Counted from the stretch's first letter, positions 2,235 through 19,689 are shown. The stretch: DNA of 64,000 bases from Alphaproteobacteria bacterium (GCA_022823765.1 JAJEHK010000206.1:3984-67983); one strand, 5' to 3'. A program made the numbers and translations. The notes: a model not told the origin generated them from the sequence alone.

Positions 2235-2407
2235 TTGCAGCACCCCCCGCCCGTGCCGACATGCAGGTTGCCCGCACGGCAACCGGAATGCCGGTATCCG
2301 AGAGGGCCATGAACACGTTGTACGGTTGAGGCCGGACCCGAATCAACCGGTCCGGACACGAAGAAGGACGACGGGCATGCCGCGCTGCATGCCCGCCGTA
2401 TCGTCTG

Positions 2408-3412
2408 TTACTGAGCGGCCTTGACTTCGTTCCAGACGCTCACCCGGCGGTCGAAATCCTCGACAGGACGGAGCCACACCAGCTTGTCGGCGTAGTCCAG
2501 TCCGGGACTCTCGTTCGTCGTGTTCCCGTATCCGTTCTTTGCGGTCATGGCCGGGCCCGTCTCGCCGTCGAGATAATGATTGACCCACTGATGGGCGCAC
2601 TCGGAGTCCTCCACCCCCTTGGAGAGGGCCCACGTGTCGAGCCAGCCGATGCCGCCCTCATCCGGAATCGAGTACACCACATCGTAGCCGCGATTGGCGA
2701 GCTCGACCGTCTGGAATTCGCCCATCGAGAACATCAGCGTCGCCTCGCTCGAATCCCACATGTTCACGCCTTCCTCAAAGCCGGCGTAGTAGCTGATAAG
2801 ATATTGCTTCTGCTCGATCAGCTTCATCTTGACGGCATCGAAGTCGGCGTCACTGAGGTTGAACGGATCCTCGAGCCCGAGAACGATTGCCGCATTGGTC
2901 ACGTTGTTGTTGGCGTCATCGAGGGCGAGCACATGTCCCGCGTTCTCCGGGCTCCACAGGGCTTCCCAGGAATCGACCCCGTCCGGAAACGCTTCCTTGT
3001 CATAGATAAGACCAAGAGAGCCCCAGGCGATGGGAACTCCGTAGGTTTCTCCGCCGCTCATGACTTCCGCCACCGAGCTGAACGAGGGAAGCAGGTTCGA
3101 GGTGTTGGGTATCTGCGACATGTCGAAGGGAATGATCAGGCCCTGGTCGAGGTAGCGCTCGACGATCGAGGTGTCGATCGAGACAAGATCGTAGTCAGCG
3201 CCATCGCTTCCCACCATCTTGGCGAACATTTCGTCCACCGACCCGGTGTAGGCCACGCTCACCTCGCAGCCCGTGGCCTCGGTGAATGGCTCCACCCATT
3301 CCGGTTCGGAGTAGCCTTCGAAGCTGAAGAGCCGGACCTCCTGCGCCGAGGCCTGTGTGCCGGTGGCGAGGACAAGCGCCGCCGCCAGTTTCCATTCAAG
3401 CGATCGAAACAT
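2408..3412 (-). CDS. ABC transporter periplasmic substrate-binding protein, PotD/PotF (polyamine-type) family
   Basis: N-terminal signal peptide MFRSLEWKLAAALVLATGTQASA followed by a PotD-like fold. Confidence 0.8.
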   Translation of the reverse strand: MFRSLEWKLAAALVLATGTQASAQEVRLFSFEGYSEPEWVEPFTEATGCEVSVAYTGSVDEMFAKMVGSDGADYDLVSIDTSIVERYLDQGLIIPFDMSQIPNTSNLLPSFSSVAEVMSGGETYGVPIAWGSLGLIYDKEAFPDGVDSWEALWSPENAGHVLALDDANNNVTNAAIVLGLEDPFNLSDADFDAVKMKLIEQKQYLISYYAGFEEGVNMWDSSEATLMFSMGEFQTVELANRGYDVVYSIPDEGGIGWLDTWALSKGVEDSECAHQWVNHYLDGETGPAMTAKNGYGNTTNESPGLDYADKLVWLRPVEDFDRRVSVWNEVKAAQ

Positions 3413-4127
3413 GATTCATCTCCCAGTTATCTGATTCGTTGTGGTGCTCCGGCCGGTCTTCCGAGGACGACCACCAGCCGGCAATGTGTTCGCACAGCAC
3501 CGGCGCCAGATCCGAGGGGTCACCCACGGCCAGGAATCGGCGAAGTTCCTCGTGCTGCACGACGACGGCATCGAGGTCCGGATGGCTGCGGATCTCGAGT
3601 CCGAAGATGATGAGAACCTGGCGCGAGATACCTTCCCAGATGCCAAGGCCCAGTGAGTGTCCGGCCTCCGAGAGGGCGGCGCGGTGAAAGTCGACGTCGG
3701 CGCGCTGGACCTGCTCGACGTTTCCGTCCGCAGCACCCTTGCGTATCGCCTCCAGGGCCCTGTCGATCTCCGTGAAACGGGAGGGATCGGCGCGCAACCG
3801 GGGTATCGCCCTGGCGAGCAGCATCGCCTCAAGCGCAATACGCACGCCGCACACCTCACGAATCTGGCGATCATCGAAGGCAGCGACCTTCCAGCCTCGT
3901 CCCGGAGAGGAACTCAGGATCCCCTGCAGCCAGAGTTCGCGCATGGCCTCGCGGACCGGAACACGACTCACGCCAAACTCGGCGGCGAGACTCTCCTCGA
4001 CAAGACGGTGCCCGGGCGGAAACGCGCCGATGGCGATGGCGACGATGAGCCGGTCGATGACCTCGTCGGTAACCAGACGTCTGCGGATCGGCGTGATCGG
4101 AGCCAGCCCTTGGTCGCTCTGCTGCAT
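3396..4127 (-). CDS. GntR-family transcriptional regulator (FadR/FCD subfamily)
   Basis: N-terminal wHTH (LAAEFGVSRVPVREAMRELWLQG) plus a C-terminal FCD-like domain. It is divergent from the SMP-30 gene. Confidence 0.85.
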   Translation of the reverse strand: MQQSDQGLAPITPIRRRLVTDEVIDRLIVAIAIGAFPPGHRLVEESLAAEFGVSRVPVREAMRELWLQGILSSSPGRGWKVAAFDDRQIREVCGVRIALEAMLLARAIPRLRADPSRFTEIDRALEAIRKGAADGNVEQVQRADVDFHRAALSEAGHSLGLGIWEGISRQVLIIFGLEIRSHPDLDAVVVQHEELRRFLAVGDPSDLAPVLCEHIAGWWSSSEDRPEHHNESDNWEMNHVSIA

Positions 4128-4196
4128 ACTGTCATGCTATGAGACTGTATGCGGCGAGTAAAGCGCAACGGATGACGCGAGAGGAGGCTTCTGACA

Positions 4197-5096
4197 ATGC
4201 CGTTCGGAATCATCCGCCACATCGCTGCCGCGTCCCATCTGGGGGAGGCGCCGCTGTGGCTCCCGACGTCCGGCGTGTTCCTGTGGCTCGATCTTCACGG
4301 ACGCCAGGTGCACCGCTTCGATCCGCAAGGTGGAAACGACCGGGTGATTGCGAGCGGGTTCGCCGAGAACCTCGCGTGCCTTGTTCGTCTGAACGACGGG
4401 TTCGTGCTCCTTGTAACGGCGACGGGATTCCTGCGCCTCGACCCCGCAAGCGGCGACACCACACCACTGCCGGCACCCCTTCGGCCCCCTGCGGGCACCT
4501 GCTTCAACGACGGCAAGGTCGCTCCCGACGGATCTCTCTGGCTCGGGATTTCCGATGTCGACGAAGGCGAGCCGACCGGTTCGCTTCACCGCGTGAGCGC
4601 CGCGGGCGTCGAGTGCATTGACCGGGGCTTTGTCGTCGCCAACGGCCCGGCGTTCTCCCCGGATGGCAGGGATGCGTACTTCGCCGACACCGTCAGCGGC
4701 AACATTCTCCACTATGCGCTCGACGCCGGGGGACGGCCCGTCGGCCGCACGCTGTTCGCGTCGGTTCCGGCCGACGAGGGCATGCCCGACGGCATGACCA
4801 CCGACCGTGACGGGCTCCTATACAGCGCCCATTGGCAGGGCAGCTGCATCAGCGTCCGTGACCCCGGGGGGACGACGGTGGAGACGATCGCTCTTCCGGC
4901 CGGCAACGTCACCTCCTGCGCATTCGGAGGCGAGGACGGCTCGCTGCTCCTTGCGACCAGCGCGGCCCGGGACGAAGACGATGGCCCCAGGTCGCCCCAC
5001 GGCGATGCGTTCGTGCTCCGCGGCCAGTCCAGGGGAATGCCGGAGCCGGAGTTCGATCCTGCCTGGCTCGGAAGGGAAGGCCCCCCGGATCCGTGA
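4197..5096 (+). CDS. SMP-30/gluconolactonase/LRE family protein (sugar lactonase-like)
   Basis: Regucalcin-type beta-propeller motifs (EAPLW, LWLDL) and C-terminal acidic residues. Confidence 0.8.
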   Translation: MPFGIIRHIAAASHLGEAPLWLPTSGVFLWLDLHGRQVHRFDPQGGNDRVIASGFAENLACLVRLNDGFVLLVTATGFLRLDPASGDTTPLPAPLRPPAGTCFNDGKVAPDGSLWLGISDVDEGEPTGSLHRVSAAGVECIDRGFVVANGPAFSPDGRDAYFADTVSGNILHYALDAGGRPVGRTLFASVPADEGMPDGMTTDRDGLLYSAHWQGSCISVRDPGGTTVETIALPAGNVTSCAFGGEDGSLLLATSAARDEDDGPRSPHGDAFVLRGQSRGMPEPEFDPAWLGREGPPDP

Positions 5097-5128
5097 GGTC
5101 GCCTGCCTTGCGCAGCACGCGGTACCGG

Positions 5129-6259
5129 TTACCGGTCACGATGGACGTAGGCCCGGGCAAGGCGGTCTTTCAGGTCAGCGACGAAACCGGTCGTCAGGAC
5201 GGCGTCATGGGCTATGGAATGCCAGAGTCCGACCTGGTTGACATAGGACCGCATCGTCATCAGACCCTCCTCGAGCTGGTCCCACGTCAGGCCCATCGCT
5301 TCGGGACGAATGTCGAGGCCGATGCCGGAGATGGTATCGAGCATCTCCTCGGCTTCGACACCGTGCAGCATCGAGCCGACGATGACGCCGAGGCACACGG
5401 GCTGACCGTGGAGGAACTTCTTCCCTGTCAGCTTTTCCAGTGTGTAGAAGAGGAAATGGTCGGTTCCCTCGATGTGGCGGGGACACCACCCCGACCCGTG
5501 ATAGCTCGTGCCCCACTTCAGGCCGTCGGCCAGCGCGTCGATGCCGCTGTCGTTCATGGCACGGATGTTGTCGACGTTCTCGACGACCGTCCTGACCTTG
5601 GTCAGGGACTGCCTCGCCAGATTTCCGTCGAACCGCCACTTTTCTTCGATCTTGCCTTCCCTTTCGGCATAGCGCCAGTCCAGGACCCCGGTGTGAAAAC
5701 AGAGGATGTCGCCAATTCCAGACCAGTTCAGCGCCGGCGGACAGCCAGCCAGAACGTCATAGTCGATGTAGATGGCCTGCGGCACGGCCCAGCCGCGATA
5801 GACGACCCGCCCGTCGAGCCGGACACCCGAGCGCTGGCCGTAGACGGCATTCACCGACAGGGCGGTCGGCGCCTGGAAGAGCGGCAGGTTCAGGCGCCAC
5901 GAGAAGTATTTCGCGACGTCCAGCGCCTGGCCCCCACCAAGCCCGACGATGGCGCGAACCTCACCGAGATTCGCGGCCTCCCGGTCGAGGTCGGCCTGTT
6001 CGATCGACCCGCAGAAGTAGGGCCTGCAGTCGGCGCCGGCGAAATGACGGGAGAAGAGTGGCCAGAGGTCGTCCATCGTGACGACGAGGAATGGCGGATT
6101 GACGAAATGGCGGAACTCGTCCAGCAGACCGCGACCGAACACGGTCGGAAATCCGTAGGCGAGGTCCTGTTGGTGATCGTGAGGCAAATCGTTCTCTCCC
6201 GTGCTGAGCCACGCCGACCGGTCAGGCGTCACCGTGGGGTGTCCACCTGTGAGAATCAA
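5129..6259 (-). CDS. DHQS/iron-containing alcohol dehydrogenase superfamily protein, glycerol-1-phosphate dehydrogenase (AraM/EgsA)-like; paralog A
   Basis: GLGGGQALDVAKY glycine-rich NAD motif. About 55% identity to the protein at 9070..10113 (shared strings LVVTM-DLWP, WRLNLPLFQ, YHGSGW, PRHIEG). An alternative TTG start near 6187 with a GGGAGAG RBS is possible. Confidence 0.75.
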   Translation of the reverse strand: MILTGGHPTVTPDRSAWLSTGENDLPHDHQQDLAYGFPTVFGRGLLDEFRHFVNPPFLVVTMDDLWPLFSRHFAGADCRPYFCGSIEQADLDREAANLGEVRAIVGLGGGQALDVAKYFSWRLNLPLFQAPTALSVNAVYGQRSGVRLDGRVVYRGWAVPQAIYIDYDVLAGCPPALNWSGIGDILCFHTGVLDWRYAEREGKIEEKWRFDGNLARQSLTKVRTVVENVDNIRAMNDSGIDALADGLKWGTSYHGSGWCPRHIEGTDHFLFYTLEKLTGKKFLHGQPVCLGVIVGSMLHGVEAEEMLDTISGIGLDIRPEAMGLTWDQLEEGLMTMRSYVNQVGLWHSIAHDAVLTTGFVADLKDRLARAYVHRDR

Positions 6260-6309
6260 ACGACCGTCTCGATCGCCGGAACAGGCGGGCTTCGAAGCGT
6301 TTGTCCGTG

Positions 6310-7521
6310 TTACAGGGCGACATCACGGTTCCCCGACCAGCTCAGGATCGCCGCCTCGCGGGCGCGCTTGACATCGCTCCAGCCTTGGCGACAGCCATCG
6401 CCCCGTGCCTGGAAAAGGTCGACTTCTTCCCGGATGGCGACAGCGACTGCAGCGGCTTCCGCGTCGGTCAGATTGCAAGGGTCGAGGTAGAGTTCCTGCC
6501 GCTCGACGAGATCGTCGCGCACCACGATGCCGGGAGACCGGGCGGCAAGCCGGGCGGCCAGTTCCCAGGCATGGAAACCCGCTTCCCGGGGCGCGATGGT
6601 GATGCGGGTCCGCGTGATCGGGTTGCCGGTCCAGTCGGCATGGCTGGTGACGGAGACACCGGACATGTCCGCGAGTTCGCGCATCCAGAGGGCTGCGCGC
6701 GCCTCCTCGGCCCGCCGGGCGGCGCCGTGATCGCGTTTCTCCCATGACTCGAGCGCTGCCATGGCGCCGACGACGCTCTCCTTGCCTGCTTTCATCGTCC
6801 GTCCGATTCCGCGGTGCTGAAGATAGGTGGCACGAATGAGATCGGAGTTTCCCGCAACGACGGCGCTCGTGACTCCCGAGAGGAACTTGTGGCCGGAATG
6901 GATCGTGGCGGATGCACCGAGTTCGATGGGTCCGGTGAGATCGTATTCGGCGGCCATGTCGACGATCGCCGGTACGCCATGCTCGCGGCACAGGTTGATG
7001 AAGACATCCATGGGAAGTTCGTTTTCGCGCACCGTATGGTGCGAGACGACGTACATGGCCGCTACTGCGCCTGCGGCCAGGGCGTCGACGAGGTGCCAGG
7101 TTTCGCAAGCCGCAGCGGTTCCAACGGGAACGACCTCGGCTCCGGCGAGGCGGATTGCCTGATCGACCGGCGCGCCATAGTTCACCATGTGTCCCATGGG
7201 CAGCAGGACACGCCGCTCCCCAGCGACGGAAGGCAGCGCCTCGATCCTGGCAAGATCAGCGCCTGTGAGACATGCGGCGACCGTCTGCGTCATGGCGGCC
7301 GCAGAGCATGAGGCGATACACCCCGCCTCGGCACCGGTCACGCGCGCGACGACGGCGCCTGCGCGCGACTGCAGTTCGTCCATGTCGACGAAGGACGCAA
7401 GGATCCGGTCGACGCACGCACGCACGTCCTCGGGCACCCTCGATGCGCCGATGCGCGTCATCGTCCCGGAGACGTTGATGACCGGGGTGAGATTCCACCG
7501 GCCGAAGGGATCGTCCGTCAT
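6310..7521 (-). CDS. SelA-like PLP-dependent enzyme (L-seryl-tRNA selenium transferase family; DgaE-type ammonia-lyase-like)
   Basis: N-terminus TPVINVSGTMTRIG and a putative PLP-lysine in SGHKFLSG, with the overall SelA-like fold. A 4-nt ATGA overlap with the upstream ATPase gene. Confidence 0.7.
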   Translation of the reverse strand: MTDDPFGRWNLTPVINVSGTMTRIGASRVPEDVRACVDRILASFVDMDELQSRAGAVVARVTGAEAGCIASCSAAAMTQTVAACLTGADLARIEALPSVAGERRVLLPMGHMVNYGAPVDQAIRLAGAEVVPVGTAAACETWHLVDALAAGAVAAMYVVSHHTVRENELPMDVFINLCREHGVPAIVDMAAEYDLTGPIELGASATIHSGHKFLSGVTSAVVAGNSDLIRATYLQHRGIGRTMKAGKESVVGAMAALESWEKRDHGAARRAEEARAALWMRELADMSGVSVTSHADWTGNPITRTRITIAPREAGFHAWELAARLAARSPGIVVRDDLVERQELYLDPCNLTDAEAAAVAVAIREEVDLFQARGDGCRQGWSDVKRAREAAILSWSGNRDVAL

Positions 7522-8561
7522 GGCAGCCGTTCTCCGGTCGTGCTGTCGAAAAAGTGCAGCCGGTCCGGCCGGAGCGCGAGCGACAGCGTCTCGCCGGCAC
7601 GAACCGTACCGCGTATGTCACCGCTGGTCCGGACGGTCAGGTGCGCACCACGGGCATTGCTGAGATGAAGAAGCGCCTCATGGCCGAGGTCCTCGATCCT
7701 GTTGACGCGCGCCGCGCCGATCGGGACCCCGCCTTCGGTCAACCCGATCAGGAGGTGTTCGGGTCGGATTCCAAGCGTCGATCCGCGACCGTGGGCGACC
7801 GTCGCTGCGGCGTCGCCAAGGAGGTCCTTCGCGTCAAGCAGGTTCATGCGCGGACTGCCTATGAAACCTGCCACGAAGGTATTCGCGGGCTGTTCGTAGA
7901 GTTCGGTGGGGACACCGATCTGCATGATCCGGCCCTGGTTCATCACCGCGATCCGGTCACCCATCGTCATGGCCTCGACCTGGTCATGGGTCACGTAGAC
8001 CGTGGTCGTCGTCAGCTGGCGCTGCATCTCGGAGATCTCTCCACGCATCTGAACCCTGAGTTCCGCATCGAGATTGGACAGCGGTTCGTCGAAGAGGAAG
8101 GCATCCGGCCTGCGAATCATGGCACGTCCCAGGGCAACGCGCTGCGCCTGGCCACCCGAAAGCTGACGGGGCTTGCGGCCGAGAAGGTCGCCGAGACCCA
8201 GCGTGTCGGCGACGCGCACGACCTCGGACTTGACGGTGGCGGGATCGGTCTTCCTGATTCTCAGTCCGAAGGAGAGATTGTCGCGCACCGTCATGTTGGG
8301 GAACAGCGCGTAGGACTGGAACACCATCGAGATGTTGCGCTGGGCGGGCGACAGGTGGTTGGCGCGTTCGCCGCCGATCATCAGGTCGCCCGATGAGATG
8401 GTCTCGAGGCCCGCGATCATCCGAAGCGTGGTCGACTTGGCGCAACCCGAGGGACCCACCAGCACCATGAACTCTCCCTCGCGGACGTAGAGGTCGAGGC
8501 CGGAGATGACCTCGACATCGCCGTAGCTCTTCGCAACGTCCAGAAACCGGATGTCTCTCAT
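7518..8561 (-). CDS. ABC transporter ATP-binding protein, MalK/UgpC (carbohydrate) type
   Basis: GPSGCAKST (Walker A), LSGGQAQRVALGRA (signature), FLFDEPLSNLD (Walker B) and a C-terminal TOBE-like regulatory domain. Confidence 0.9.
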   Translation of the reverse strand: MRDIRFLDVAKSYGDVEVISGLDLYVREGEFMVLVGPSGCAKSTTLRMIAGLETISSGDLMIGGERANHLSPAQRNISMVFQSYALFPNMTVRDNLSFGLRIRKTDPATVKSEVVRVADTLGLGDLLGRKPRQLSGGQAQRVALGRAMIRRPDAFLFDEPLSNLDAELRVQMRGEISEMQRQLTTTTVYVTHDQVEAMTMGDRIAVMNQGRIMQIGVPTELYEQPANTFVAGFIGSPRMNLLDAKDLLGDAAATVAHGRGSTLGIRPEHLLIGLTEGGVPIGAARVNRIEDLGHEALLHLSNARGAHLTVRTSGDIRGTVRAGETLSLALRPDRLHFFDSTTGERLP

Positions 8562-9073
8562 CGCAATGCGTTCCAGTCCGGGGAAATCGAAACGATCGCG
8601 TCAATCTCGACGGTGATGTTGCCGGGCAGGGATCCCATGCCGACGGCCGTGCGCGCATGCCTGCCCCGTTCACCGAAGACGTCGCAGAACAGGTTGGAAC
8701 AACCGTCGATGACCGCCGGGTGATCAACGAAGTCGGGTCCGGCATTGACCATGCCGAAGACACGGCGGATCTGCGCGACATGCTCAAGCGAGCCAAGAAT
8801 TTCCCTTATTGCGGCGATCAGCACGAGACCGGTTCTTTGTGCGTGGTGGAACGCTTCATGGACAGGAACGTCAAGCCCGACCTTGCCGGTTGCCAGCCGG
8901 CCGCATTCCAGGACCGGCCCCTGGCCCGACAGATAGAGCGTCGTGCCGTCGATGGAGCCCAGGTCGAAGTTCCCGACAGGCGCGGGTGTCGGGGGAATGA
9001 CATGGCCGAGTTCGGCAAGCCGCCGGTCTGCGACACACTCCGGGCCAGCCGTTCCGCGTCGTTGTGTGTTCAT
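8558..9073 (-). CDS. RidA/YjgF/TdcF family protein (reactive enamine/imine deaminase)
   Basis: YjgF-type chorismate-mutase-like fold of about 170 aa. It is overlap-coupled to both neighbouring genes. Confidence 0.75.
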   Translation of the reverse strand: MNTQRRGTAGPECVADRRLAELGHVIPPTPAPVGNFDLGSIDGTTLYLSGQGPVLECGRLATGKVGLDVPVHEAFHHAQRTGLVLIAAIREILGSLEHVAQIRRVFGMVNAGPDFVDHPAVIDGCSNLFCDVFGERGRHARTAVGMGSLPGNITVEIDAIVSISPDWNALR

Positions 9074-10113
9074 GCGGCAAAGGCTCCTTCAATCCTGTTT
9101 CGGGCAGTGGTCAGGAACTCTCCCGTTACGTCGAAGTCGTTGGCGATACCGTAGGCGAGACCTTCACGCTCGACGAAGGCCCTCAATCCGCGCATGGCCT
9201 CGAAGACATCGTGCCACGTCACGTTCATGGCGGCGGGGCGAATGTCGAGGCCGAGACGGGTCACCGCACCGAGCAGTTCATCAACACGCTGACCATGCAT
9301 CATCGCGCCGAGCACGAGACCCAGACACACCGCCTGGCCATGCAGGAACGCTTTCCCTGTTCCCGCTTCGAGGGCATAGAAGATGTAGTGCTCGACTCCC
9401 TCGATGTGGCGCGGATTCCAGCCCGCACCGTGGTAGGAGGCACCACCCCATCTCAGGCCGTCGACCAGAATCCGGATGCCGCGCGGCGAAAGCGTCCTGA
9501 TTTCGTCAAGTTCGGCCAGCGCCGTCCCGGCCTTCGCCAGCGAGATGGCGGCGAGGCTCTCATCAAAGGGCCAGCGCGATTCGCACTTGCCCCGGGCCTC
9601 GGCGTGACGCCAGTCCATGACGCCGGTAACGAAGCACAGGACATCGCCCATGCCGGCGATGTTGAGTGCGCGGGGCGCGGATTCAATGATATCGAGGTCG
9701 ATGTAGACGGTTTGCGGGACGGCCCATCCGACATACCTGACGACGCTGTTTTCCCGGACCCCCGCACGATGTCCGAAGACGGCATCGACGGAAAGCGATG
9801 TCGGAAACTGGAAGAGCGGCAGGTTGAGACGCCAGGCGGCATACTTGGCGGCATCGATCGCCTGACCACCTCCCAGACCGACGATCGAGGCAACATTTCC
9901 GATCGTCTCGAGATCGGCTTCCAGCGCGTCACGTTCCATGGAACGCACCATGTAGGGCACGGCATCGTCCGGCAGGGAGTCGCGAAAGACGGGCCAGAGG
10001 TCTTCCATCGTCACGACCAGCATGGGCGGGCATACGAAGTTCGCCGCTTCGTGAAGAAGGTTGCGTCCGAAGACTGTCGTGAACTGCGGGATATCGGATT
10101 CCTTGAACGGCAT
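9070..10113 (-). CDS. DHQS/iron-ADH superfamily protein, glycerol-1-phosphate dehydrogenase-like; paralog B
   Basis: GLGGGQAIDAAKY motif. It is a paralog of the protein at 5129..6259. Confidence 0.75.
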   Translation of the reverse strand: MPFKESDIPQFTTVFGRNLLHEAANFVCPPMLVVTMEDLWPVFRDSLPDDAVPYMVRSMERDALEADLETIGNVASIVGLGGGQAIDAAKYAAWRLNLPLFQFPTSLSVDAVFGHRAGVRENSVVRYVGWAVPQTVYIDLDIIESAPRALNIAGMGDVLCFVTGVMDWRHAEARGKCESRWPFDESLAAISLAKAGTALAELDEIRTLSPRGIRILVDGLRWGGASYHGAGWNPRHIEGVEHYIFYALEAGTGKAFLHGQAVCLGLVLGAMMHGQRVDELLGAVTRLGLDIRPAAMNVTWHDVFEAMRGLRAFVEREGLAYGIANDFDVTGEFLTTARNRIEGAFAA

Positions 10114-10116
10114 GGT

Positions 10117-10974
10117 TCAGCCCTTGACTGCGCCAAGAGACAATCCCTTGACGATGTGTTTCTGTGCCGCGACAGCGAACAGCAGCATCGGCACGATGGC
10201 AACGATCGACGCGGCGGTCATCGCACCCCAGTCGAGCGACGCATAGCCGCGAAAGCTTGTTACCCCAAGCGTGACCGTCTGAGCCTTGGAGAACGTCAGG
10301 CCCAGTGCGATGGCAAGTTCGTTCCAGATCCAGATGGCGTTCAGGACGGCCGTGGCGGCCATCCCGGGCAGGGTACAGGGTACGTAGATCCTCGTCAGGA
10401 TTTGCCAGTTGGAGGCACCCTCGATGCGCGCGGCTTCGTCGATCGCCGGATTGATCTCGCGGAAGAACGAACTCAGGAGCCAGATCGACAGCGGCAGGAC
10501 GTGCACCTGGTACATGAGGGCAAGGCCGACATGGGTGTCATAGAGCCCTGTCCACTGGTAGAGCGAGAACATCGGAATGACGAAAAGAAACTCGGGGAGC
10601 ATGTAGGCAAGGATCAGCCAGACGCCGACGAGGTTCCTGCCCCTGATCTTCATCCGGACGATGGCATAGGCGGTCGGAATGGCGATGGCGAGCGACAGGG
10701 CCACGCCGATGGCCGTGATGATGACGGAGTTCAGGAACGTGTACTTGAACGTCTCATGGCTCCACAGCTTGAGATAGTTGGCCGTTGTCGGATCGAAGAT
10801 CCAGAGCGGAGGGCTGGCAAGGCCATCGCGCCTGGACTTGAGCGAGACCGTGAGCACCCAGTAGACCGGGAACAGGCTGAACAGGACCATGGCCCCGGTG
10901 AAGACATAGGCCCACGCCTGGGAAAGTCCTGTTCCCGGACCGCCGTGGAACTGCAGGACGGTGCGCATCTTCAT
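10117..10974 (-). CDS. ABC transporter permease, MalG/UgpE-like (CUT1 family)
   Basis: Six transmembrane helices and the EAA loop EAARIEGASNWQILTRIYVP. The track ORF 10117..11937 is an artificial fusion. The true start MKMRTV at 10974 overlaps the upstream permease stop (ATGA). Confidence 0.85.
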   Translation of the reverse strand: MKMRTVLQFHGGPGTGLSQAWAYVFTGAMVLFSLFPVYWVLTVSLKSRRDGLASPPLWIFDPTTANYLKLWSHETFKYTFLNSVIITAIGVALSLAIAIPTAYAIVRMKIRGRNLVGVWLILAYMLPEFLFVIPMFSLYQWTGLYDTHVGLALMYQVHVLPLSIWLLSSFFREINPAIDEAARIEGASNWQILTRIYVPCTLPGMAATAVLNAIWIWNELAIALGLTFSKAQTVTLGVTSFRGYASLDWGAMTAASIVAIVPMLLFAVAAQKHIVKGLSLGAVKG

Positions 10975-11852
10975 GCGTGGTGTTCGCCGCGCCGCTGCAA
11001 TGCCTGCAACGCCAGGGAAATGACGAGAATCAGGAGCGAGAACAGAATCATCGTCGCCATCGCCTTGCCGATCTGTTGATAGCTGTAGGCAGTGCGGTAG
11101 ACGAAGGTCTGCACGACTTCGGTTGCCAGGGCCGGTCCGCCACCGGTCGTGCCGAAGACGATGTCGAAGACCTTCAGGGTGTCGATGGCCCGGATGATGA
11201 TGACGGTGATCAGCAGCGAGCGCAGCATCGGCAATTTGATGGACCAGAAAATGGTGAACTCGCTCGCACCCTCGACACGGGCTGCCTCGACCGGTTCCGC
11301 CGGCAGGCTTCGCAATCCGGCAAGCATGATGATGAAGACGAAAGCCGTCTGCCACCAGACATCGACCGCGACGATGGAAGCCATCGCTGTTTCGACAGCG
11401 CCGTAGAAGGCCGAGGGACCAAGGCCGAACACACCGATCAGGTGGTTGATGATGCCGAGGAAGGGATCGAACATGACCTTTGACATCAGCGCAACGACGA
11501 TGCCGGAAACCATGAGCGGCAACATGATCACCGCGCGAATGAGATCCGTCCGGATGGCCAGCTTGTCGACTTGCACCGCGAGGTAGAACCCCAGCGCGAC
11601 CTCGATGGCCGTCGCCCACACGGCGAACACCACCGTGTTCTTCATGACGCTCCAGAACTCGGCGCCGGAGAGAAGGCTGGCATAGTTCGCCCAGCCGACA
11701 AACTCGAACTGGTTGCCCCAGTTCCAGTTGGTGAATGACACCGCCAGTCCGAACCCGACGGGATAGACCGACGTGAACGCGAGAATCAGGAGGCAGGGCA
11801 GAACGAACCACAGGGCCGAGGCCCTGCCGAGGAACCTGAGCGCAGACGTCAT
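10971..11852 (-). CDS. ABC transporter permease, MalF/UgpA-like (CUT1 family)
   Basis: EAA loop EAARVEGASEFTIFW. The start MTSALRF at 11852 is chosen over the long N-terminal extension given in the track. Confidence 0.85.
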   Translation of the reverse strand: MTSALRFLGRASALWFVLPCLLILAFTSVYPVGFGLAVSFTNWNWGNQFEFVGWANYASLLSGAEFWSVMKNTVVFAVWATAIEVALGFYLAVQVDKLAIRTDLIRAVIMLPLMVSGIVVALMSKVMFDPFLGIINHLIGVFGLGPSAFYGAVETAMASIVAVDVWWQTAFVFIIMLAGLRSLPAEPVEAARVEGASEFTIFWSIKLPMLRSLLITVIIIRAIDTLKVFDIVFGTTGGGPALATEVVQTFVYRTAYSYQQIGKAMATMILFSLLILVISLALQALQRRGEHHA

Positions 11853-11937
11853 GGCGCTCTCCGGACCGGAAAGCAGGATGAACTCTCCGGAAAGATGCCC
11901 CGGATGGCAGGAAATTGCCATCCGGGGCGAGGCACAT

Positions 11938-13305
11938 TCAGTTGGCGAGCATTGTCTCGAAGTCGGTCTGGGCCGCAGCGCCGGCCTCGGCAGGGTCTGC
12001 ACCGCCGTAGATATCCTGAATCACGTCAACGATGCGCAGCGCGAACTCGCTCCAGCCGGCACGTTGCACGACCGAGGTCTGCGAGTTGGGCATGGCGGCT
12101 GCCACGGCATCGACATAGGACTGCGGGAAGCTCGCCGCGTACTCGGGATCCTGCCACGTCGACAGACGCGGTGCGCCGCCGTGCAGCTTGCCGATGGTGG
12201 TCGCGTTGGCCGTGTTCGACATGTACTGGATGAAGAGCCAACCGGCCTCGGGTGAGGCGGCGTTCTGCGGGATTCCGAAACCCCACTGCCAGTGGGCCGT
12301 GTAGGGCTCGCCCTCGGCGTTGTCGACGGGGATGACCGAGTAGCCGATCTTGCCGGCAACGAGGCTCTCGTCCGGGTTCTCGAAGCCGGGAGCGAAGAGG
12401 CTTGCGTCGATGAAGAACGCCGCGCCACCCGCCATGAAGAACTGCGAGGCATCGGGCCAGTCCATGGCCTGGATGTTGACGGGACCGGCCTTCATCAGTT
12501 CCGCATAGTTCGCGAGGCCCCGCACGATATCGGGATCGTTCATCTTCGGCTTCGACCAGTCACCGTCGAACCAGACGTTTTGCGGAGCGGAGCGGTCTGC
12601 CGCACCGACCGAATTGTTCACGAAGCCGGTGACCGTGTCGATCAGCGTGTCCGACCGGATGCCACGCAGGACGGCACCCGCGATGGCGCCCCCGCTTTCC
12701 TCCTTCACCTCGCGCGCCGCGGCGATCAGTTCTGCCATCGTTGTCGGCATCTTGCCGTCAAGATACTGGTTCACGTGATCCATGTTGGCGAACAGGATGT
12801 AGGTCTCGAACGAAGCCGGGATACCGTGGTACTCCCAACGGCCGTCGATGTCGTACGTGGTTGCATCAAGGAAGCCTGCCGGGATGTCGTCCAGATTGTA
12901 GTCGCCAGCCGTGAGATCAGGGCTGTCGATGAAGTCCTGCAAGGAATGGACGAGGCCGTTGGTGTGCTGGGTGTAGGCCGTGGAATCCATCGGCAGGAAG
13001 TAGACGTCCATCTGCGAGTTGCCGCCCGAGCCGCGCAGCGCCACTTCCATGCGGTCGAAGTAGAGATCTTCGGCCATGGTCTGCAGGGTGACGTCGATCC
13101 CGGTGTCGGCCTCGAACTGGTCGAGCACCACACGCACGCCGTCGGTGACGGGATGTTCCGGCATCATGACGGTGATCGACTCTCCCGAGAGCTGGTCCCA
13201 CGAAAAGTCGGCCGTAGCGACCGTGGCGCTGACCGCAAGGGCTACCGACGATGCGGTGACCAGCTTGGCCGCTCTGACAAGGGCTCCTCGCCGCGATGTG
13301 TTCAT
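11938..13305 (-). CDS. ABC transporter substrate-binding protein (family 1, carbohydrate type) with a twin-arginine-like signal peptide
   Basis: Start MNTSRRGALVRAAKLVTASSVALA at 13305, preceded by a GGAGG RBS with a 5-nt spacer. SBP_bac_1-like fold. Confidence 0.85.
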   Translation of the reverse strand: MNTSRRGALVRAAKLVTASSVALAVSATVATADFSWDQLSGESITVMMPEHPVTDGVRVVLDQFEADTGIDVTLQTMAEDLYFDRMEVALRGSGGNSQMDVYFLPMDSTAYTQHTNGLVHSLQDFIDSPDLTAGDYNLDDIPAGFLDATTYDIDGRWEYHGIPASFETYILFANMDHVNQYLDGKMPTTMAELIAAAREVKEESGGAIAGAVLRGIRSDTLIDTVTGFVNNSVGAADRSAPQNVWFDGDWSKPKMNDPDIVRGLANYAELMKAGPVNIQAMDWPDASQFFMAGGAAFFIDASLFAPGFENPDESLVAGKIGYSVIPVDNAEGEPYTAHWQWGFGIPQNAASPEAGWLFIQYMSNTANATTIGKLHGGAPRLSTWQDPEYAASFPQSYVDAVAAAMPNSQTSVVQRAGWSEFALRIVDVIQDIYGGADPAEAGAAAQTDFETMLAN

Positions 13306-13507
13306 CGTTTCCTCCGTATGTTCTGACAGCCTGCTGATCAGGCATTGGTCGACCGGATTTTCCAGGAACGGAAATCGGTTGACCAATTGGCGCAGATGCA
13401 CAACCATTTGTCAAACCCCGTGTTCATCGCCACGTGAGCATGACGCTGCCATTTCCGGAGAGCGTTGAGGTTTGCGCGACCGGTGGACCCATTCGAAAGG
13501 AAACGTC

Positions 13508-14200
13508 ATGTCGATGGCCTTTGATGTGACCGACCGGGTTTATCGGGAGATCCGCGATCTCCTGCGCTCTGGCGACATCCTGCCCGGCCAGCGACTGCCC
13601 AACGAGCGCAAGCTGGCCGAGATGAGGGGGGCGTCGCGCACCCAGGTGCGGGATGCGCTTCTCATGTTGCAGAAGGAGGGGCTGGTCGAACGCAAGATCG
13701 GAAGTGGCACCTACCTGTCCGAGCGGGCGCCACAGATCATCGAGCTGGCTGACGCTGCGGTCCACATGTCGCCCGAGCGCTCCCATGGCTTCCACGAGAC
13801 CCTAGAGGCGCGGCTGCTTGTCGAGCCATCGGTCGCGGCGCGTGCGGCCGAGGCGCCCACACCACAGTTCTGCAAGGATCTCGAGGCAGCACTGGAACGC
13901 ATCCTGGCGGCGCCTACCTGGCTCCAGTTCAAGGAAGACATCTACGGATTCTCACGCCTCTATTACGTGGAGGCGGGCAACGACTTCCTGTGCTGGACCT
14001 TCGATCAGATCGTGGCTGCCCGTCGCGCGAACAAGTTTGACGGCGGAAGCGACCAGGCCCCGGTGGCCAATATTGTGCGCAGGCACTTCCATGACCGCCT
14101 GTCGAAGATTGCGGATGCCATCACCTCCGGGGACCCCCAACGGGCAAGGGCCGAGGTGGAGGGTTTCCTGGTTGCCATGGCCGCTTCGCTGGCGCTCTGA
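13508..14200 (+). CDS. GntR-family transcriptional regulator (FadR/FCD subfamily), divergent from the ABC operon
   Basis: wHTH (LPNERKLAEMRGASRTQVRDALLMLQKEGLV) plus an FCD domain. Start MSMAFDV is preceded by AAGGAAA. Confidence 0.85.
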   Translation: MSMAFDVTDRVYREIRDLLRSGDILPGQRLPNERKLAEMRGASRTQVRDALLMLQKEGLVERKIGSGTYLSERAPQIIELADAAVHMSPERSHGFHETLEARLLVEPSVAARAAEAPTPQFCKDLEAALERILAAPTWLQFKEDIYGFSRLYYVEAGNDFLCWTFDQIVAARRANKFDGGSDQAPVANIVRRHFHDRLSKIADAITSGDPQRARAEVEGFLVAMAASLAL

Positions 14201-14578
14201 TCAGGGGTCTCGTGACAGGCCTTCGGCTTCGAGGCGATCGAGGTAGGCCTGCCAGACACTGTCCCGGTTGCAGCCGAGTTCGTGAAGATAGTTCCACGAG
14301 TAGATGCCGGTATCGTGCAGATCGTCGAAAGTGATGCGTATGGCGTAGTTGCCGACGGGCTCCACCGACATGATGCCGACATGGCGACGGCCGGGAACGG
14401 TCTTCCTCTGGCCCGCGCCATGGCCCTGGACCTCGGCCGAGGGGCTTTCGACACGCAGCAGTTCGGCCGGCAACGTGACGGAGGTGCCGTCATCAAAGTC
14501 GATCTCGAGAGCCTTCTGCTGCGACTTAAGGCGGATCTCGACAGGCCGGTGGCGGCTGGCACGGGCCTCGCCCTTCAC
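14201..14578 (-). CDS. DUF971 (gamma-butyrobetaine hydroxylase-like N-terminal domain) protein
   Basis: [22 protein letters not shown] motif. Confidence 0.7.
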
Positions 14579-14766
14579 GTCTCCTCTCCATCGAGGCGGC
14601 GCGCCTCGTCGACCAGCATGATCGGGATGCCGTCCCGGATGGGATAGGCGAGGCCCGCTTCAGCGCTCACCAGTTCCTGGCGCTCGCGATCCAGGGTGAG
14701 CGGTCCCTTGGTCAGCGAACAGACCAGGATCTCGAGAAGCCGGGGATCGACGTCGGTTTCACTCAT
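14575..14766 (-). CDS. Trm112/YcaR (UPF0434) family small protein
   Basis: [23 protein letters not shown]...DGIPIML, typical Trm112-like protein of about 63 aa. Confidence 0.7.
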
Positions 14767-15107
14767 CGCGTTGGCCCCTCCCAAGTACGCCTCGTGATGT
14801 CCAACTTAGTCTCCATCACTCCTGACGTGCACCCCGCGAGACAGGTGGGCCTTGAACGAGCCCGACCGGTTGCGCGGTTTGCCTGTTTCCATCAGCCAGC
14901 CGTGGTCCGAAGATTTCTACTCGACTCGGCCGCCTTGCTGCAATGGCGAATGGAGGCCATGGCAATACCCTGCCACATCGAGTCGGGAATGAGTTCGACG
15001 CCCTCGCGGTGCGTCTGCATGAGAGGCGTGTCGCCAATGGCCGGCGGCGCAGCACGATGGAAACCGAACTGGTGGGCGGTCACTGTCTGGTCGCGTTGGT
15101 TGCGGGG

Positions 15108-15518
15108 TTACGGGTCCGTGCCGGAAAGAGTCCAGTCCTCGCAAACGAGTCCCTCGACGCGTTCGAACTCCCGGCTGTTGGCGGTGACCAGCACCAGTTT
15201 GCGAGCGCGGGCCTGCCCGGCGATCAACAAGTCATGAGGGCCAATCGGAAGCCCTTTCGCATCAAGCTCGCTGCGCACAGCGCCTGCTGCGCGTGCATCG
15301 CCAGCATCGAATGGAACGATCTCGAACTCCAGTCGGTCCAGCAACCCGAGATTGCGGTCTGCATGTTGGCTCTTGTGGGCGCCGTAGTAGAGCTCATAGG
15401 CGACCGGGGCAGGTAGTCCGATATCCGCAGGCCGGAGGCGGCGCAGGCGCATACGAAGCTGCGGCGATGTGTCGTTGAGCAAAGCAATGCAGGCGTTGGT
15501 ATCGAACAGGTAGCGCAT
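15108..15518 (-). CDS. vapC: PIN-domain toxin VapC
   Basis: N-terminal MRYLFDTNACIALL with conserved acidic PIN residues. ATGA overlap with the upstream antitoxin. Confidence 0.8.
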   Translation of the reverse strand: MRYLFDTNACIALLNDTSPQLRMRLRRLRPADIGLPAPVAYELYYGAHKSQHADRNLGLLDRLEFEIVPFDAGDARAAGAVRSELDAKGLPIGPHDLLIAGQARARKLVLVTANSREFERVEGLVCEDWTLSGTDP

Positions 15519-15766
15519 CAGTCGAAAACGCTGTCGAGATGCGTTCGCGATGGCAGTTCCGGCTGGTTGCGGCCTGCGGCGAAGAAATCACTTGAGAATT
15601 CGCCTGCCACGGCATCGAGCCACTCCCAGTCCGACGCAACGGGTTCAAGGATTACTGCTGCGCCCTGCCTGCGGATGCGGACTTCGGCGCCCTTCATCCG
15701 GAATTCCTTGGGAAGCCGCACCGCCTGAGAGCGGCCCGACCAGAAGAGTTTGGCCGTTCTGGACAT
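15518..15766 (-). CDS. vapB: Antitoxin VapB (AbrB/MazE/SpoVT family)
   Basis: MSRTAKLFWSGRSQAVRLPKEFRM swapped-hairpin motif. Start at 15766 is chosen rather than the longer track ORF. Confidence 0.75.
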   Translation of the reverse strand: MSRTAKLFWSGRSQAVRLPKEFRMKGAEVRIRRQGAAVILEPVASDWEWLDAVAGEFSSDFFAAGRNQPELPSRTHLDSVFD

Positions 15767-15923
15767 AAGCGCCTCCAACAGAGATATGACATTGGAATAT
15801 ACCAACTGGATGTCAGATAATCCAGATTCGGACGACAAGAGGTTGGCGACGCTCTACCTGCTCATCCGGGATTCTTCACACGAAGTCGGTCTCCCAAGGG
15901 CGCACCCGTCCCCGTTCCCTATG

Positions 15924-16595
15924 TCACTGGCGGACAGGACTGTCGTCGTCTTCCTGGCTGCCGATCTCGAGCAGGGTGGTGAGGATGCGGGCGCGTTCCA
16001 GAAAGTCCGCCGCTTCGAGCAGGGCCTGTTTCTCCAGGGGGCTGAAGGGGCAGACCATGGAAAGCGCCGTCACGAGGGTCTCGTCGTTCGCCTTGCCGAT
16101 GGCGTCCCAGTCCGCCTCGATCTGCTTTCTTTGAAAGAACTGCTTGAGGTGGGCAATGAGGGAGGTGCGTTCGATCAGGTCGGTGGCGGAAACGGGCTTC
16201 ATGTCCTCGGCGAAGTCGGAGTAGTCGGCTTCGACCAGACGGTAGGCACCGGCGGCAAGGGCGAGTTCGCGCGCCACACGATAGCGCGCCAGTCCGATCA
16301 GCGTGATCAGGTAGCGGCCGTCGTCGGTTTCGGTGAACTGGATGATTCGTCCGGCACATCCGATGGCAAAGCAATGGGCCGATCCGATGTCGTCGGCCTC
16401 CTCGTCGGGCTGGATCATGCCGATGATGCGGTCGTCGGACTTGAGCGCATCCTCGATCATGGAAACATAACGGGGTTCGAAGATGTTGAGCGGCAGGGTG
16501 CCTCGCGGCAACAGGAGGGCCCCGGGCAGGGGAAAGACAGGAATGGTCGACGGCAGTCCGTCGATGGTGCGGTAGTACGGCAGGCCCGCCATCAC
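15924..16595 (-). CDS. LON peptidase N-terminal (substrate-binding) domain protein
   Basis: PLFPLPGALLLPRGTLPLNIFEPRY motif of the Lon N-domain. This protein is commonly found next to the thioredoxin gene in alphaproteobacteria. Confidence 0.75.
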   Translation of the reverse strand: MMAGLPYYRTIDGLPSTIPVFPLPGALLLPRGTLPLNIFEPRYVSMIEDALKSDDRIIGMIQPDEEADDIGSAHCFAIGCAGRIIQFTETDDGRYLITLIGLARYRVARELALAAGAYRLVEADYSDFAEDMKPVSATDLIERTSLIAHLKQFFQRKQIEADWDAIGKANDETLVTALSMVCPFSPLEKQALLEAADFLERARILTTLLEIGSQEDDDSPVRQ

Positions 16596-16610: not shown

Positions 16611-17522
16611 CTAGCTGAACCAGGCCGATGACAGCTTGCGGCGGCCGTCGATGGCCGCCTGATCGGTCGGTCCCCAGGCCTCGAAGAACTTCAGGAGCTC
16701 CTTGCGCGCCGCCTCGTCATTCCAGTCTCTCTTGAGGGCAATGATGGCGATGAGCTGATCGACCGCGTCGTCGCGCCGGTCAATGGCGGCGAGAGCCCGC
16801 GCCAGCTCGAGCCGTGCCTCGAAATCCTTGCCGTCGGCCGCAACCCTCGCCTCGAGGGCCGCCATGTCACCGGTTGCGCTGCCCAGGAGCTCCATCTGGG
16901 CCCTGACACCCTTGATGCGTTCGTCCTCGGCAATGGCCTCATCGAAGCTGTCAAGAAGGTCCGTCACCTCGCCTGTGCGTCCCAGGGCAATGAGCGAGCG
17001 GCACAGACCGGCGGCCGCATCGACATTGTCGCTCTCGCGCGTCAGGACCTGGCGGTAGAGGGCCGCTGCCTGCTCCGCGGAGCCCCCTTCCAGGGCTTCG
17101 TCCGCCTGGGCGAGGGCCTGCTCCACGGCACTCGGTCCGATGTCGCCGACCAGGCGTTCGACAAAGGCCTTGATCTGGCTCTCCGGCTGGACCCCGACGA
17201 AACCGTCCACCGGTTGTCCCTGATCGAAAGCGAACACCGCCGGAATCGACTGCACTCTCAGGGCCTGGGCGATCTGCGGCTCCTCGTCGATGTTGATCTT
17301 CACCAGGGTCACCTTGCCGCCGGCCGCCCGGACAACCTTCTCGAGAACGGGTGCGATCTGCTTGCACGGTCCGCACCAGGGCGCCCACAGATCGACGATG
17401 ACCGGTTTGTCGCGGGACGCCAGAAGGACATCCTGCTGGAACGTCGCCGTGGTCACGTCCTTGACCTCGCCGCCGGCCTCTGCCGCAGCCTGTGACTCTC
17501 CTCCCTGGATGATGAATGCCAT
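16611..17522 (-). CDS. Thioredoxin with a C-terminal TPR-like domain (YbbN/CnoX-like)
   Basis: WAPWCGPCK active site followed by a helical TPR-like extension of about 200 aa. Confidence 0.85.
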   Translation of the reverse strand: MAFIIQGGESQAAAEAGGEVKDVTTATFQQDVLLASRDKPVIVDLWAPWCGPCKQIAPVLEKVVRAAGGKVTLVKINIDEEPQIAQALRVQSIPAVFAFDQGQPVDGFVGVQPESQIKAFVERLVGDIGPSAVEQALAQADEALEGGSAEQAAALYRQVLTRESDNVDAAAGLCRSLIALGRTGEVTDLLDSFDEAIAEDERIKGVRAQMELLGSATGDMAALEARVAADGKDFEARLELARALAAIDRRDDAVDQLIAIIALKRDWNDEAARKELLKFFEAWGPTDQAAIDGRRKLSSAWFS

Positions 17523-18671: not shown

Positions 18672-18769
18672 GACGCCTACCCCTTGTCGTTGACACCGGA
18701 TTCTACGCGAGGATCGATCCCGGTGATATCGCGATGGCGAGGGACGCCCCGGCGCCCCTTGCCCGGACC

Positions 18770-19654: not shown

Positions 19655-19689
19655 GAATGTTCCTCCAGGTCAATGAATGGGCTGAATGG

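Follow-up and report, generated by a model that had tools for sequence, protein, structure and literature searches.

Gene content and layout of the locus

A 64,000-nucleotide stretch of DNA from an alphaproteobacterium (GCA_022823765.1, JAJEHK010000206.1:3984-67983; hereafter the window) carries a cluster of nine genes, A to I, at positions 5129 to 14200. It encodes an ATP-binding cassette (ABC) importer of the carbohydrate type, a pyridoxal phosphate (PLP) enzyme related to DgaE, a Rid-family deaminase, two paralogous oxidoreductases resembling the glycerol-1-phosphate dehydrogenase G1PDH, and a GntR-type regulator (Table 1). The original prediction, made from the sequence alone, described these as nine minus-strand genes. 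Its coordinates stand, but its count does not: eight co-directional genes lie on the minus strand, transcribed in the order H, G, F, E, D, C, B, A, and the ninth is the divergent regulator on the plus strand. The domain assignments given there were reproduced by Pfam and NCBIfam profile searches of each protein.

ATGA start/stop overlaps join the genes at the G/F, E/D, D/C and C/B junctions, and these four overlaps, already pointed out in the original prediction, can be read directly from the sequence. F and E are separated by 3 nt. Shine-Dalgarno-like sequences precede the likely starts of H (ATG 13305), G (ATG 11852), A (TTG 6187) and I (ATG 13508). The reading frame of A is open to 6259; the likely TTG start, preceded by GGGAGAG, gives a protein of 352 amino acids. 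The frame of I is open from 13472, and its start codon stands behind AAAGGAAA. Because of these overlaps, the conserved synteny, and a putative operator pair that is both conserved and unique in the window, the minus-strand genes constitute a single regulated operon.

Table 1. Genes and intergenic elements of the locus; positions count from the first nucleotide of the window.
Feature	Position	Strand	Description	Basis or remark
A	5129-6187	-	G1PDH/GldA-like metal- and NAD(P)-dependent oxidoreductase, paralog 1 ('SVNA' clade)	Pfam, NCBIfam, clade
B	6310-7521	-	DgaE-family (SelA-related) fold-type I PLP enzyme, predicted aminoaldonate ammonia-lyase/dehydratase	NCBIfam, PDB match
C	7518-8561	-	ABC ATPase, MalK/UgpC type with TOBE domain	Pfam, NCBIfam
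D	8558-9073	-	Rid-family enamine/imine deaminase	PF14588; start overlaps stop of E
E	9070-10113	-	G1PDH/GldA-like metal- and NAD(P)-dependent oxidoreductase, paralog 2 ('SVDA' clade)	Pfam, NCBIfam, PDB
F	10117-10974	-	ABC permease, MalG/UgpE-like	BPD_transp_1 60 bits
G	10971-11852	-	ABC permease, MalF/UgpA-like	BPD_transp_1 62 bits
H-G hairpin	11897-11928	-	Perfect hairpin, 13-bp stem and 6-nt loop, GCCCCGGATGGCA ... TGCCATCCGGGGC	In the 85-nt gap between H and G
H	11938-13305	-	Periplasmic solute-binding protein, CUT1 family	SBP_bac_1 67.1 bits
Operator pair	13344-13387		Inverted pair of GntR-type putative operator sites, ATTGGTCGACCG (13344-13355) and CGGTTGACCAAT (13376-13387)	H-I intergenic region
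Third site	13481-13492	-	Degenerate operator-like site, ATGGGTCCACCG	2 mismatches; just upstream of regulator start codon
I	13508-14200	+	GntR/FCD transcription factor, divergent from the operon	GntR 69.9, FCD 42.8 bits

Putative regulatory elements

The two sites between H and I are the sole exact copies of the operator within the 64-kb window. In an alignment of related loci (alignment A2) the pair is kept as far as the Bauldia sp. record, and a TTGACA-containing block just upstream of it on the operon strand is conserved as well. The region of the third, degenerate site is also conserved in that alignment, although the site is weak taken alone. I has the features of the FadR/FCD subfamily of GntR regulators, namely a GntR winged helix, an FCD domain and a TGGT...ACCA-type palindromic putative operator near its own gene, and it adjoins the operon in 18 of the 35 dereplicated loci that had enough flanking sequence for comparison. 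The arrangement of the predicted sites is what would be expected of a FadR-type GntR repressor bound at the operon promoter. Carboxylates are common effectors of FCD-type regulators. I would probably respond to an acid intermediate and bind the ATTGGTCRACCG inverted pair at the promoter. The hairpin between H and G may be an intercistronic stem-loop that stabilizes the message for the binding protein. Promoter and terminator scans gave no signal above chance, and an Rfam search of 4000-15900 returned no match.

The importer

The products of H, G, F and C have the composition that defines CUT1 systems: an SBP_bac_1 protein, two BPD_transp_1 permeases and a MalK/UgpC-type ATPase with a TOBE/OB domain. 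The ATPase C scores 103.8 bits with ABC_tran and 36.4 bits with TOBE_2 in Pfam, and 430.7 bits with the UgpC subfamily model, of which the cut-off is 432. The solute-binding protein (SBP) H has an N-terminal signal sequence containing SRRGAL, and its CUT1 SBP fold is confirmed by an AlphaFold2 model (pLDDT 89.6) and Foldseek. By sequence and by fold, the nearest solved structures are 5iai and 4rya, at 21-23% identity, and binders of maltose, sulfoquinovosyl-glycerol and oligosaccharides rank closely behind them. The Foldseek matches represent the generic CUT1 fold at 14-23% identity, a distance too great for the ligand of H to be deduced from them. Homology shows the importer to be of a kind that would take its compound up unphosphorylated.

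The DgaE-like enzyme and the Rid-family protein

B finds its best match in the PDB in Salmonella DgaE (7lc0; E=1.4e-57, 34% identity). The SGHK and VSHH motifs of B align with K213 and H162/H163 of DgaE, so that the PLP-binding Lys213 and the His-His pair are kept. In DgaE, Arg301, Arg332 and Arg346 have been assigned to a cluster around the 6-phosphate and Arg226 to the carboxylate, roles that for the Arg residues rest on manual docking (PMC9529869). Arg301 and Arg332 are kept in B and its family. Arg346 is replaced by Cys, within an invariant LDPCN motif, in all ten family members examined. Since Arg346 is lost and position 226 is not conserved, B appears to represent a distinct DgaE subfamily with a substrate other than glucosaminate-6-phosphate. 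A non-phosphorylated substrate would fit uptake by an ABC importer, which does not phosphorylate. In line with this distance, B scores 277 bits with TIGR01437 (cut-off 385.3) and 238 bits with the DgaE equivalog NF047797 (cut-off 600).

B had been called SelA-like. It reaches 23.2 bits with the SelA model TIGR00474, against a cut-off of 267.9, and has 403 amino acids, compared with about 460 in SelA. Some homologues are annotated as 'L-seryl-tRNA(Ser) seleniumtransferase' or 'glycerol dehydrogenase-like', names that would speak for B as a true selenocysteine synthase, for A and E as ordinary glycerol dehydrogenases without a link to the transporter, or for both. Against this, the window of 64 kb contains no tRNA gene, and in 30 of the 35 loci A and E go with the importer. 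The scores (those of A and E are given below) and the synteny refute both ideas, which retain practically no probability.

D is assigned to the Rid family by PF14588 (72.3 bits, cut-off 35). With the model of archetypal RidA, TIGR00004, it scores 19.5 bits against a cut-off of 106.25. Among its orthologues, the equivalent of the catalytic Arg105 is present in 38 of 41 and that of Glu120 in 36 of 41, numbered by an E. coli RidA reference sequence. The catalytic roles of these Arg and Glu residues have been described (PMC4433059). Across this cluster family, the RidA gene always lies directly 3' of E, which it overlaps in the window, and never adjoins B. Two Paracoccaceae metagenome-assembled genomes (MAGs) have, about 2.5 kb upstream of the main cluster, a second, paralogous pair of directly adjacent RidA and SelA/DgaE-like genes (L013, 2-1641; L016, 14-1526), whose products are 43-46% identical to D and B.

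The two oxidoreductases

A and E are 51% identical to each other and have GGGQ, GD(V/I)LCF, HIEGxxH and LHGQ in common. Both match Pfam Fe-ADH_2 (50.3 bits for A, 54.1 for E). Their best named family is G1PDH (NF002022), with 101.5 bits for A and 121.3 for E against a cut-off of 413; for the pair, the scores fall to 38.8-46.7 bits with GldA (NF006941, cut-off 336) and to 16.3-39.5 bits with the dehydroquinate synthase (DHQS) AroB model (TIGR01357, cut-off 305). The best PDB matches of E are 3ce9, 5fb3 and 4rgq (E 1e-17 to 1e-20). GLGGGQAID, GDVLCF, VEH and LHGQ align with the corresponding motifs of these proteins, and the putative Asp/His/His metal ligands are aligned. We take these motifs to bind the metal from what is known of the GldA and G1PDH families. 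By these profile comparisons, each of the four enzymes A, B, D and E is a below-threshold relative of its named family and not a member of it. The homologues of B, E and H bear only generic or misleading names in the databases.

A motif of their own, G[HQ]R[AS]G[VI]R, runs through the whole A/E family and is missing from the aligned G1PDH and 3ce9 sequences. Its two family-wide Arg hint at an anionic substrate. SVNA in A corresponds to SVDA in E, and the two proteins fall into separate clades. Since each clade has members from sponge-type, pelagic, Bauldia sp. and rearranged loci, the duplication is old. A search among 1.8 billion representative proteins gave 107 clusters matching E at E<=1e-30, the best of them 51% identical, from which the family is judged small and distinct. 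A distant homologue annotated as G1PDH turned out to be a glycolaldehyde reductase (PMC9700705), so that the annotation is unreliable at such distances.

Conservation and gene content of related loci

Conservation of the neighbourhood had been proposed as a check on the system. When gene content was compared by tblastn and by called genes, synteny was found to be kept in more than 30 loci from sponge-symbiont, pelagic and freshwater bacteria. The gene order of the window recurs in 24 of 34 genome loci, with B 57-91% identical (88-91% in the closest relatives), as well as in additional loci from metagenomes. The arrangement exceeds by far what chance would produce. Almost all of the genome matches are MAGs, assigned to unclassified Alphaproteobacteria, Rhodospirillales, Paracoccaceae and Geminicoccaceae, and the bin names RHO, CAR and APA borne by many of them are read as those of sponge metagenome bins. 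The sole named isolate among the genome matches, Ruegeria sp. 2012CJ15-1, was set aside as a source of an intact system. Its cluster (L018, 7400-11970) is a decayed remnant in which the SBP and permease genes are gone, E is partial and the ATPase truncated, with B and the gene of a short-chain dehydrogenase/reductase (SDR) intact. In a plasmid collection, the search for near-identical DNA matched only generic ugpC-like ATPase genes and the protein-level search for E found nothing; therefore, rhizobial transport-induction data could not be used.

The loci fall into several forms, for some of which we use the labels T1, T2 and T4. The fullest form, T1, is seen on two long-read chromosomes (L121 and L122) and reads I / H G F E D C B SDR A. 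The clade comprising the window and its closest relatives has T1 without the SDR, a sister group of several sponge-type loci has T1 without RidA, and the Bauldia sp. record (L039) has RidA and the SDR with B absent. In the pelagic form T2, found on Tara and other ocean contigs, the operon is limited to H G F E C A; its neighbours include a NagZ-sized family 3 glycoside hydrolase (GH3), a second ABC system, an epimerase-like gene, a distant SelA-like gene and a CE7 esterase. T4, on metagenome contigs (about 62% GC in L067), consists of two divergent operons, I A (lactonase) SDR B F G H and C E D, and a PIG-L deacetylase gene adjoins one T4 locus. Low-GC versions on marine metagenome contigs combine E either with a DegT aminotransferase, lactonase, SDR and B or with GNAT, SIS_2 and a class-III aminotransferase. 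By comparison of these gene orders, the SDR that stands between B and A in related full-length versions is taken to have been lost from the window's lineage. Its best family match is glucose 1-dehydrogenase.

Of the 35 dereplicated loci, 30 have the importer, 25 have B and 23 have A; RidA is found in 20 of them, the SDR in 16 and a lactonase in 10. From these counts, the constant core is the importer with its G1PDH-like enzyme or enzymes, and B and RidA are frequent but optional. The pairing of a SelA-like enzyme with RidA, which the original prediction placed at the centre, does recur, in the two Paracoccaceae MAGs above and in the Firmicutes clusters described below. However, it is not the invariant heart of the system: the pelagic loci have neither gene in the operon, Bauldia sp. 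lacks B, and several sponge-type loci lack RidA.

In four pelagic loci (L035-L038, 1801-6615), a TctABC tripartite transporter, an FCD-domain fragment and a PdxA-family dehydrogenase are encoded immediately upstream of the importer-E-A operon; this group is another acid-sugar-type module.

Evidence on the substrate and a proposed pathway

The related locus that speaks most directly to the substrate lies in Vibrio mediterranei (L123; assembly GCA_013114225.1, contig VTXV01000050.1, 6354-17125). It comprises genes for a ROK regulator, an Fe-ADH_2 protein, an SBP, two permeases, an ATPase, a NagK-like kinase, a second Fe-ADH_2 protein, a GlmU-like bifunctional enzyme and SIS_2. Its SBP is the closest homologue of H, at 58-61% identity, and one of its oxidoreductases is 46% identical to both A and E, the second being more distant. 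The BadF-type kinase has the Shewanella GlcNAc kinase as its best model, the ROK regulator is NagC/Mlc-like, and some 2.5 kb upstream of the locus there is a gene for a GH18 chitinase (1003-3855).

The trio of SDR, DgaE-like enzyme and RidA also recurs in Firmicutes, in Lachnotalea sp. (L031, 6012-16341) and Blautia producta (L033, 9162-18679). There RidA is present as two paralogs, and the clusters also encode GH38 and GH2 mannosidases, a D-aminoacylase-like amidohydrolase, an AGE-family epimerase, an ABC importer and an RraA-like aldolase. These clusters look like an undescribed oxidative route for hexosamine derived from N-glycans.

Taken together, the Vibrio locus, the Firmicutes trio, the family match of the SDR and the published parallels discussed below point to an amino-sugar-type substrate as the best-supported class. 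The company that this transporter family and the A/E-like enzymes keep in other loci agrees with it: PIG-L, DegT, or GNAT with SIS_2 and a class-III aminotransferase, and, beside the pelagic operons, the NagZ-sized GH3, the SelA-like gene and the CE7 esterase. The comparative evidence thus favours the range of amino sugars, amino-sugar acids and aminopolyols that had been suggested from the sequence. The recurrence of the trio and the parallels also make a credible step for B and RidA, the conversion of an aminoaldonate to a 2-keto-3-deoxy acid and ammonium.

We tentatively propose, as quite possible though short of probable, that the operon, under repression by the GntR/FCD regulator, serves to take up and break down an amino-sugar-type compound, either a free-amine hexosamine or a closely related amino-alditol or amino-aldonate. 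The CUT1 system H, G, F, C would import the compound without phosphorylating it. E and A would carry out redox at the level of the sugar, oxidizing it towards the aminoaldonate or epimerizing it through a keto intermediate to a standard amino sugar or acid. B, given its identity with DgaE and the catalytic residues that it keeps, would eliminate water from the 2-amino-3-hydroxy acid, and D, with its conserved Arg and Glu, would hydrolyse the released enamine/imine. The resulting 2-keto-3-deoxy acid and ammonium could then be handed to Entner-Doudoroff-type enzymes encoded elsewhere. In the fuller relatives, the glucose-1-dehydrogenase-like SDR, with or without a lactonase, would serve the step from aldose to aldonate.

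For A and E, sugar-level redox upstream of standard amino-sugar enzymes is the favoured role, judged from genomic context: they are linked to the importer under any downstream toolkit, are usually paired, and keep the putative redox machinery. If A and E oxidize the sugar towards the aldonate, it would be understandable that the window's lineage can do without the SDR. A more specific idea is that they form an amino-sugar-dedicated branch of the G1PDH/GldA fold, acting as an epimerase pair through a keto intermediate or as a deaminating amino-polyol dehydrogenase that works with RidA. We consider this doubtful as it stands. In the epimerase version, the pair could convert an abundant 'orphan' environmental amino sugar, such as galactosamine, into a standard one.

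Several observations weigh against the amino-sugar pathway. The operon of the window lacks an SDR, and the neighbouring lactonase has no operator copy and its own GntR; therefore, the aldose-to-aldonate step is left without an assigned enzyme in the window. The position of Arg226, the proposed ligand of the alpha-carboxylate in DgaE, is Asn in the window's B and variable across the family. The two nearest structures of H are EFI solute-binding proteins, of which 4rya is labelled 'Sorbitol', and not amino-sugar binders, though at the low identity given above. The pelagic operons contain no deaminating enzyme, so that a compound free of nitrogen is a conceivable substrate of the core. The operon also lacks both a kinase and an aldolase for the product, and characterized members are known neither from the A/E family nor from the close relatives of B.

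Other readings of the locus

An alternative that we think unlikely keeps the nitrogen and moves the chemistry to an alditol. The importer would take up a 2-amino-polyol, anything from serinol-like to glucosaminitol-like; E, acting in the manner of glycerol or G1P dehydrogenase, would form an imine at the carbon bearing the amino group, and the co-translated RidA would turn it into a ketone and ammonia. A would then handle a second stereoisomer or a second oxidation, and B would be an accessory route. The position of RidA directly behind E in every version that has RidA, including the B-less Bauldia sp. locus, would be explained, as would the 'Sorbitol' label among the nearest SBP structures and the place of A and E in the polyol-dehydrogenase branch of their superfamily. 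However, the accessory SDR and lactonase imply an aldose or lactone intermediate, and the kinase, SIS_2 and GlmU-like contexts of the Vibrio and T7 loci suit sugars better than alditols. Moreover, we know of no amine dehydrogenase with the fold of A and E, nor of abundant natural amino-alditols.

It is also improbable, slightly more so, that the importer with A and E is a nitrogen-free polyol or sugar-acid system into which B and RidA came later as a loosely connected insertion, for instance for a side activity or detoxification. The pelagic operons consist of precisely this core, B, D and the SDR are each missing from some loci, and the sorbitol label of one nearest SBP structure would again agree. 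Against this, B is found in most of the dereplicated loci and in independently rearranged versions, and the loci without B usually hold a DegT aminotransferase, a class-III aminotransferase with SIS_2 and GNAT, a NagK-like kinase, or a SelA-like gene nearby.

Scavenging of glycerophospho-serine-type headgroups, e.g. from archaeal sn-glycerol-1-phosphate lipids, through a Ugp-like importer has a very slim chance. B would eliminate the phosphodiester from serine, RidA would convert aminoacrylate to pyruvate, and A/E would oxidize glycerol 1-phosphate or glycerol 3-phosphate to dihydroxyacetone phosphate, so that E, D, B and A alone would yield only central metabolites. The UgpC score of the ATPase, permeases that match UgpA and UgpE among others, the rank of G1PDH as the best named family of A/E, and the retention in B of two of the three putative phosphate-binding Arg of DgaE are in its favour. 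So is the fact that the hosts live with abundant archaea in sponges. However, A and E remain far below the G1PDH cut-off, the PDB sequence search detected no similarity of H to UgpB-type proteins, and the SDR, lactonase, PIG-L, NagK-like and GlmU-like genes of related loci make no sense under such a scheme.

Still less credit is due to the catabolism of an aminocyclitol of the inosamine type, with A and E as DHQS-like carbocycle enzymes, a possibility raised in the original prediction. A and E do belong to the DHQS-like superfamily, one related locus has an aminotransferase of the DegT family, which includes inosose aminotransferases, and the PIG-L family is known from aminoglycoside pathways too. 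Nothing specific to this reading was found, however: A and E are far nearer to G1PDH than to DHQS, none of the loci has inositol-pathway genes (IolG, IolE and the like), and the chitinase, NagK-like and GlmU-like neighbours indicate hexosamines. Mycosporine-like amino acids, sulfonates (DHPS, cysteinolate), opines and teichoic-acid fragments were considered as substrates and rejected, as they gained no specific support and leave the NagK-like, GlmU-like, SIS_2 and PIG-L contexts unexplained.

Neighbouring genes

On the side of A, positions 1065-5096 hold a separately regulated locus of acid-sugar type. It encodes a dehydratase-like MR_MLE protein of the enolase superfamily (1065-2282, minus strand), an SBP_bac_8 binding protein (2408-3412, minus), a second GntR/FCD regulator (3396-4127, minus) and an SMP-30/gluconolactonase (4197-5096, plus) convergent with A. 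The last keeps its position beside A in the window's closest relatives, at 72-90% identity, and was tried as a member of the system. It was rejected: it is convergent, has no operator copy and lies beside its own GntR, and is therefore assigned to the adjacent locus. It is merely 30-37% identical to the lactonases inside related operons.

On the other side, about 1.7 kb past the regulator gene (14200-15900) contains larger open reading frames without a Pfam match. The next recognizable genes encode a Lon substrate-binding-domain protein (15924-16595, minus) and a thioredoxin-TPR protein (16611-17522, minus). A minus-strand run at 17604-22360 follows, with a luciferase-like monooxygenase (17604-18671), a BKACE protein (18770-19654), a 3-hydroxyacyl-CoA dehydrogenase (19690-20643), an enoyl-CoA hydratase (20640-21440) and a His_biosynth-fold protein (21440-22360). 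The pair of BKACE and 3-hydroxyacyl-CoA dehydrogenase presumably resembles genes for degradation of the carnitine/dehydrocarnitine type.

Significance and comparison with known systems

Amino sugars make up a large share of dissolved organic nitrogen in marine and fresh waters and of sponge- and chitin-derived material, and it is known only in part how abundant uncultured Alphaproteobacteria exploit them. If A and E are indeed an amino-sugar-dedicated branch, the locus would represent a new assimilation route that is wide in sponge symbionts, open-ocean and freshwater bacteria and some vibrios. Identification of the substrate would give a function to hundreds of genes now called 'hypothetical' or misnamed as 'selenocysteine synthase' or 'glycerol-1-phosphate dehydrogenase', and would add a trait for acquisition of carbon and nitrogen to models of sponge symbiosis and organic-matter turnover. 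The related locus in the cultivable V. mediterranei makes the question experimentally tractable.

The statement that no described pathway matches the locus was borne out: a literature search brought up no paper that deals with the cluster, with PDB 8t7j or with A/E-like enzymes. There is more precedent for the chemistry than had been supposed. DgaE of Salmonella is the closest characterized relative of B, which is a full-length homologue and keeps the PLP Lys, the His-His proton-donor pair and two of three active-site Arg, and the predicted type of reaction, from aminoaldonate to 2-keto-3-deoxy acid and ammonia, is the same. The DgaE system differs in that its uptake is by a mannose-type phosphotransferase system rather than an ABC importer. 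The window's operon has no DgaF/KDPG-type aldolase, its B falls below both family cut-offs with Arg346 changed to Cys, and RidA and two G1PDH-like enzymes are added.

In the ong pathway of Pseudoalteromonas for marine oxidative chitin use, the deacetylase OngB, the GlcN1A deaminase OngC, the RidA-family protein OngD and the kinase KdgK act together (PMC9537276). As proposed here, an aminoaldonate (GlcN1A) is deaminated, in that case to 2-keto-3-deoxygluconate (KDG), and a RidA-family protein is genetically required, in marine bacteria (PMC9537276). The differences from the window are that OngC, a PLP enzyme of fold-type III, has no relation to B, that transport is of the TonB/SSS type, that a deacetylase and a kinase are present, and that G1PDH-like enzymes are absent. 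A glucosamine oxidation route of haloarchaea, at present a prediction only, combines a glucose dehydrogenase with a DgaE-like enzyme and a RutC-family protein (PMC12343721). The same trio of aldose dehydrogenase, DgaE-like lyase and Rid-family protein is seen in the fuller relatives of the window's operon. The route is archaeal, however, and its genes lie in chitinase clusters with an IclR regulator and no G1PDH-like pair.

In fold, in the GGG dinucleotide motif and in the putative Asp/His/His metal site, A and E agree with G1PDH (EgsA/AraM) and GldA. They differ in scores that reach a quarter to a third of the family cut-off, in the G[HQ]R[AS]G[VI]R motif, and in the consistent location of their genes in importer-linked catabolic clusters, usually as a paralogous pair. 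The Smo operons for sorbitol and mannitol likewise encode a CUT1 importer and two polyol dehydrogenases, which recalls the 'Sorbitol' label of 4rya. However, the dehydrogenases of the window belong to another superfamily, a PLP lyase and RidA are present, and the SBP is about 21-23% identical. Thus, part of the logic of the locus is already known or predicted elsewhere, and its new element is the conserved G1PDH-like pair that is tied to a CUT1 importer and, variably, to the DgaE-like/RidA module.

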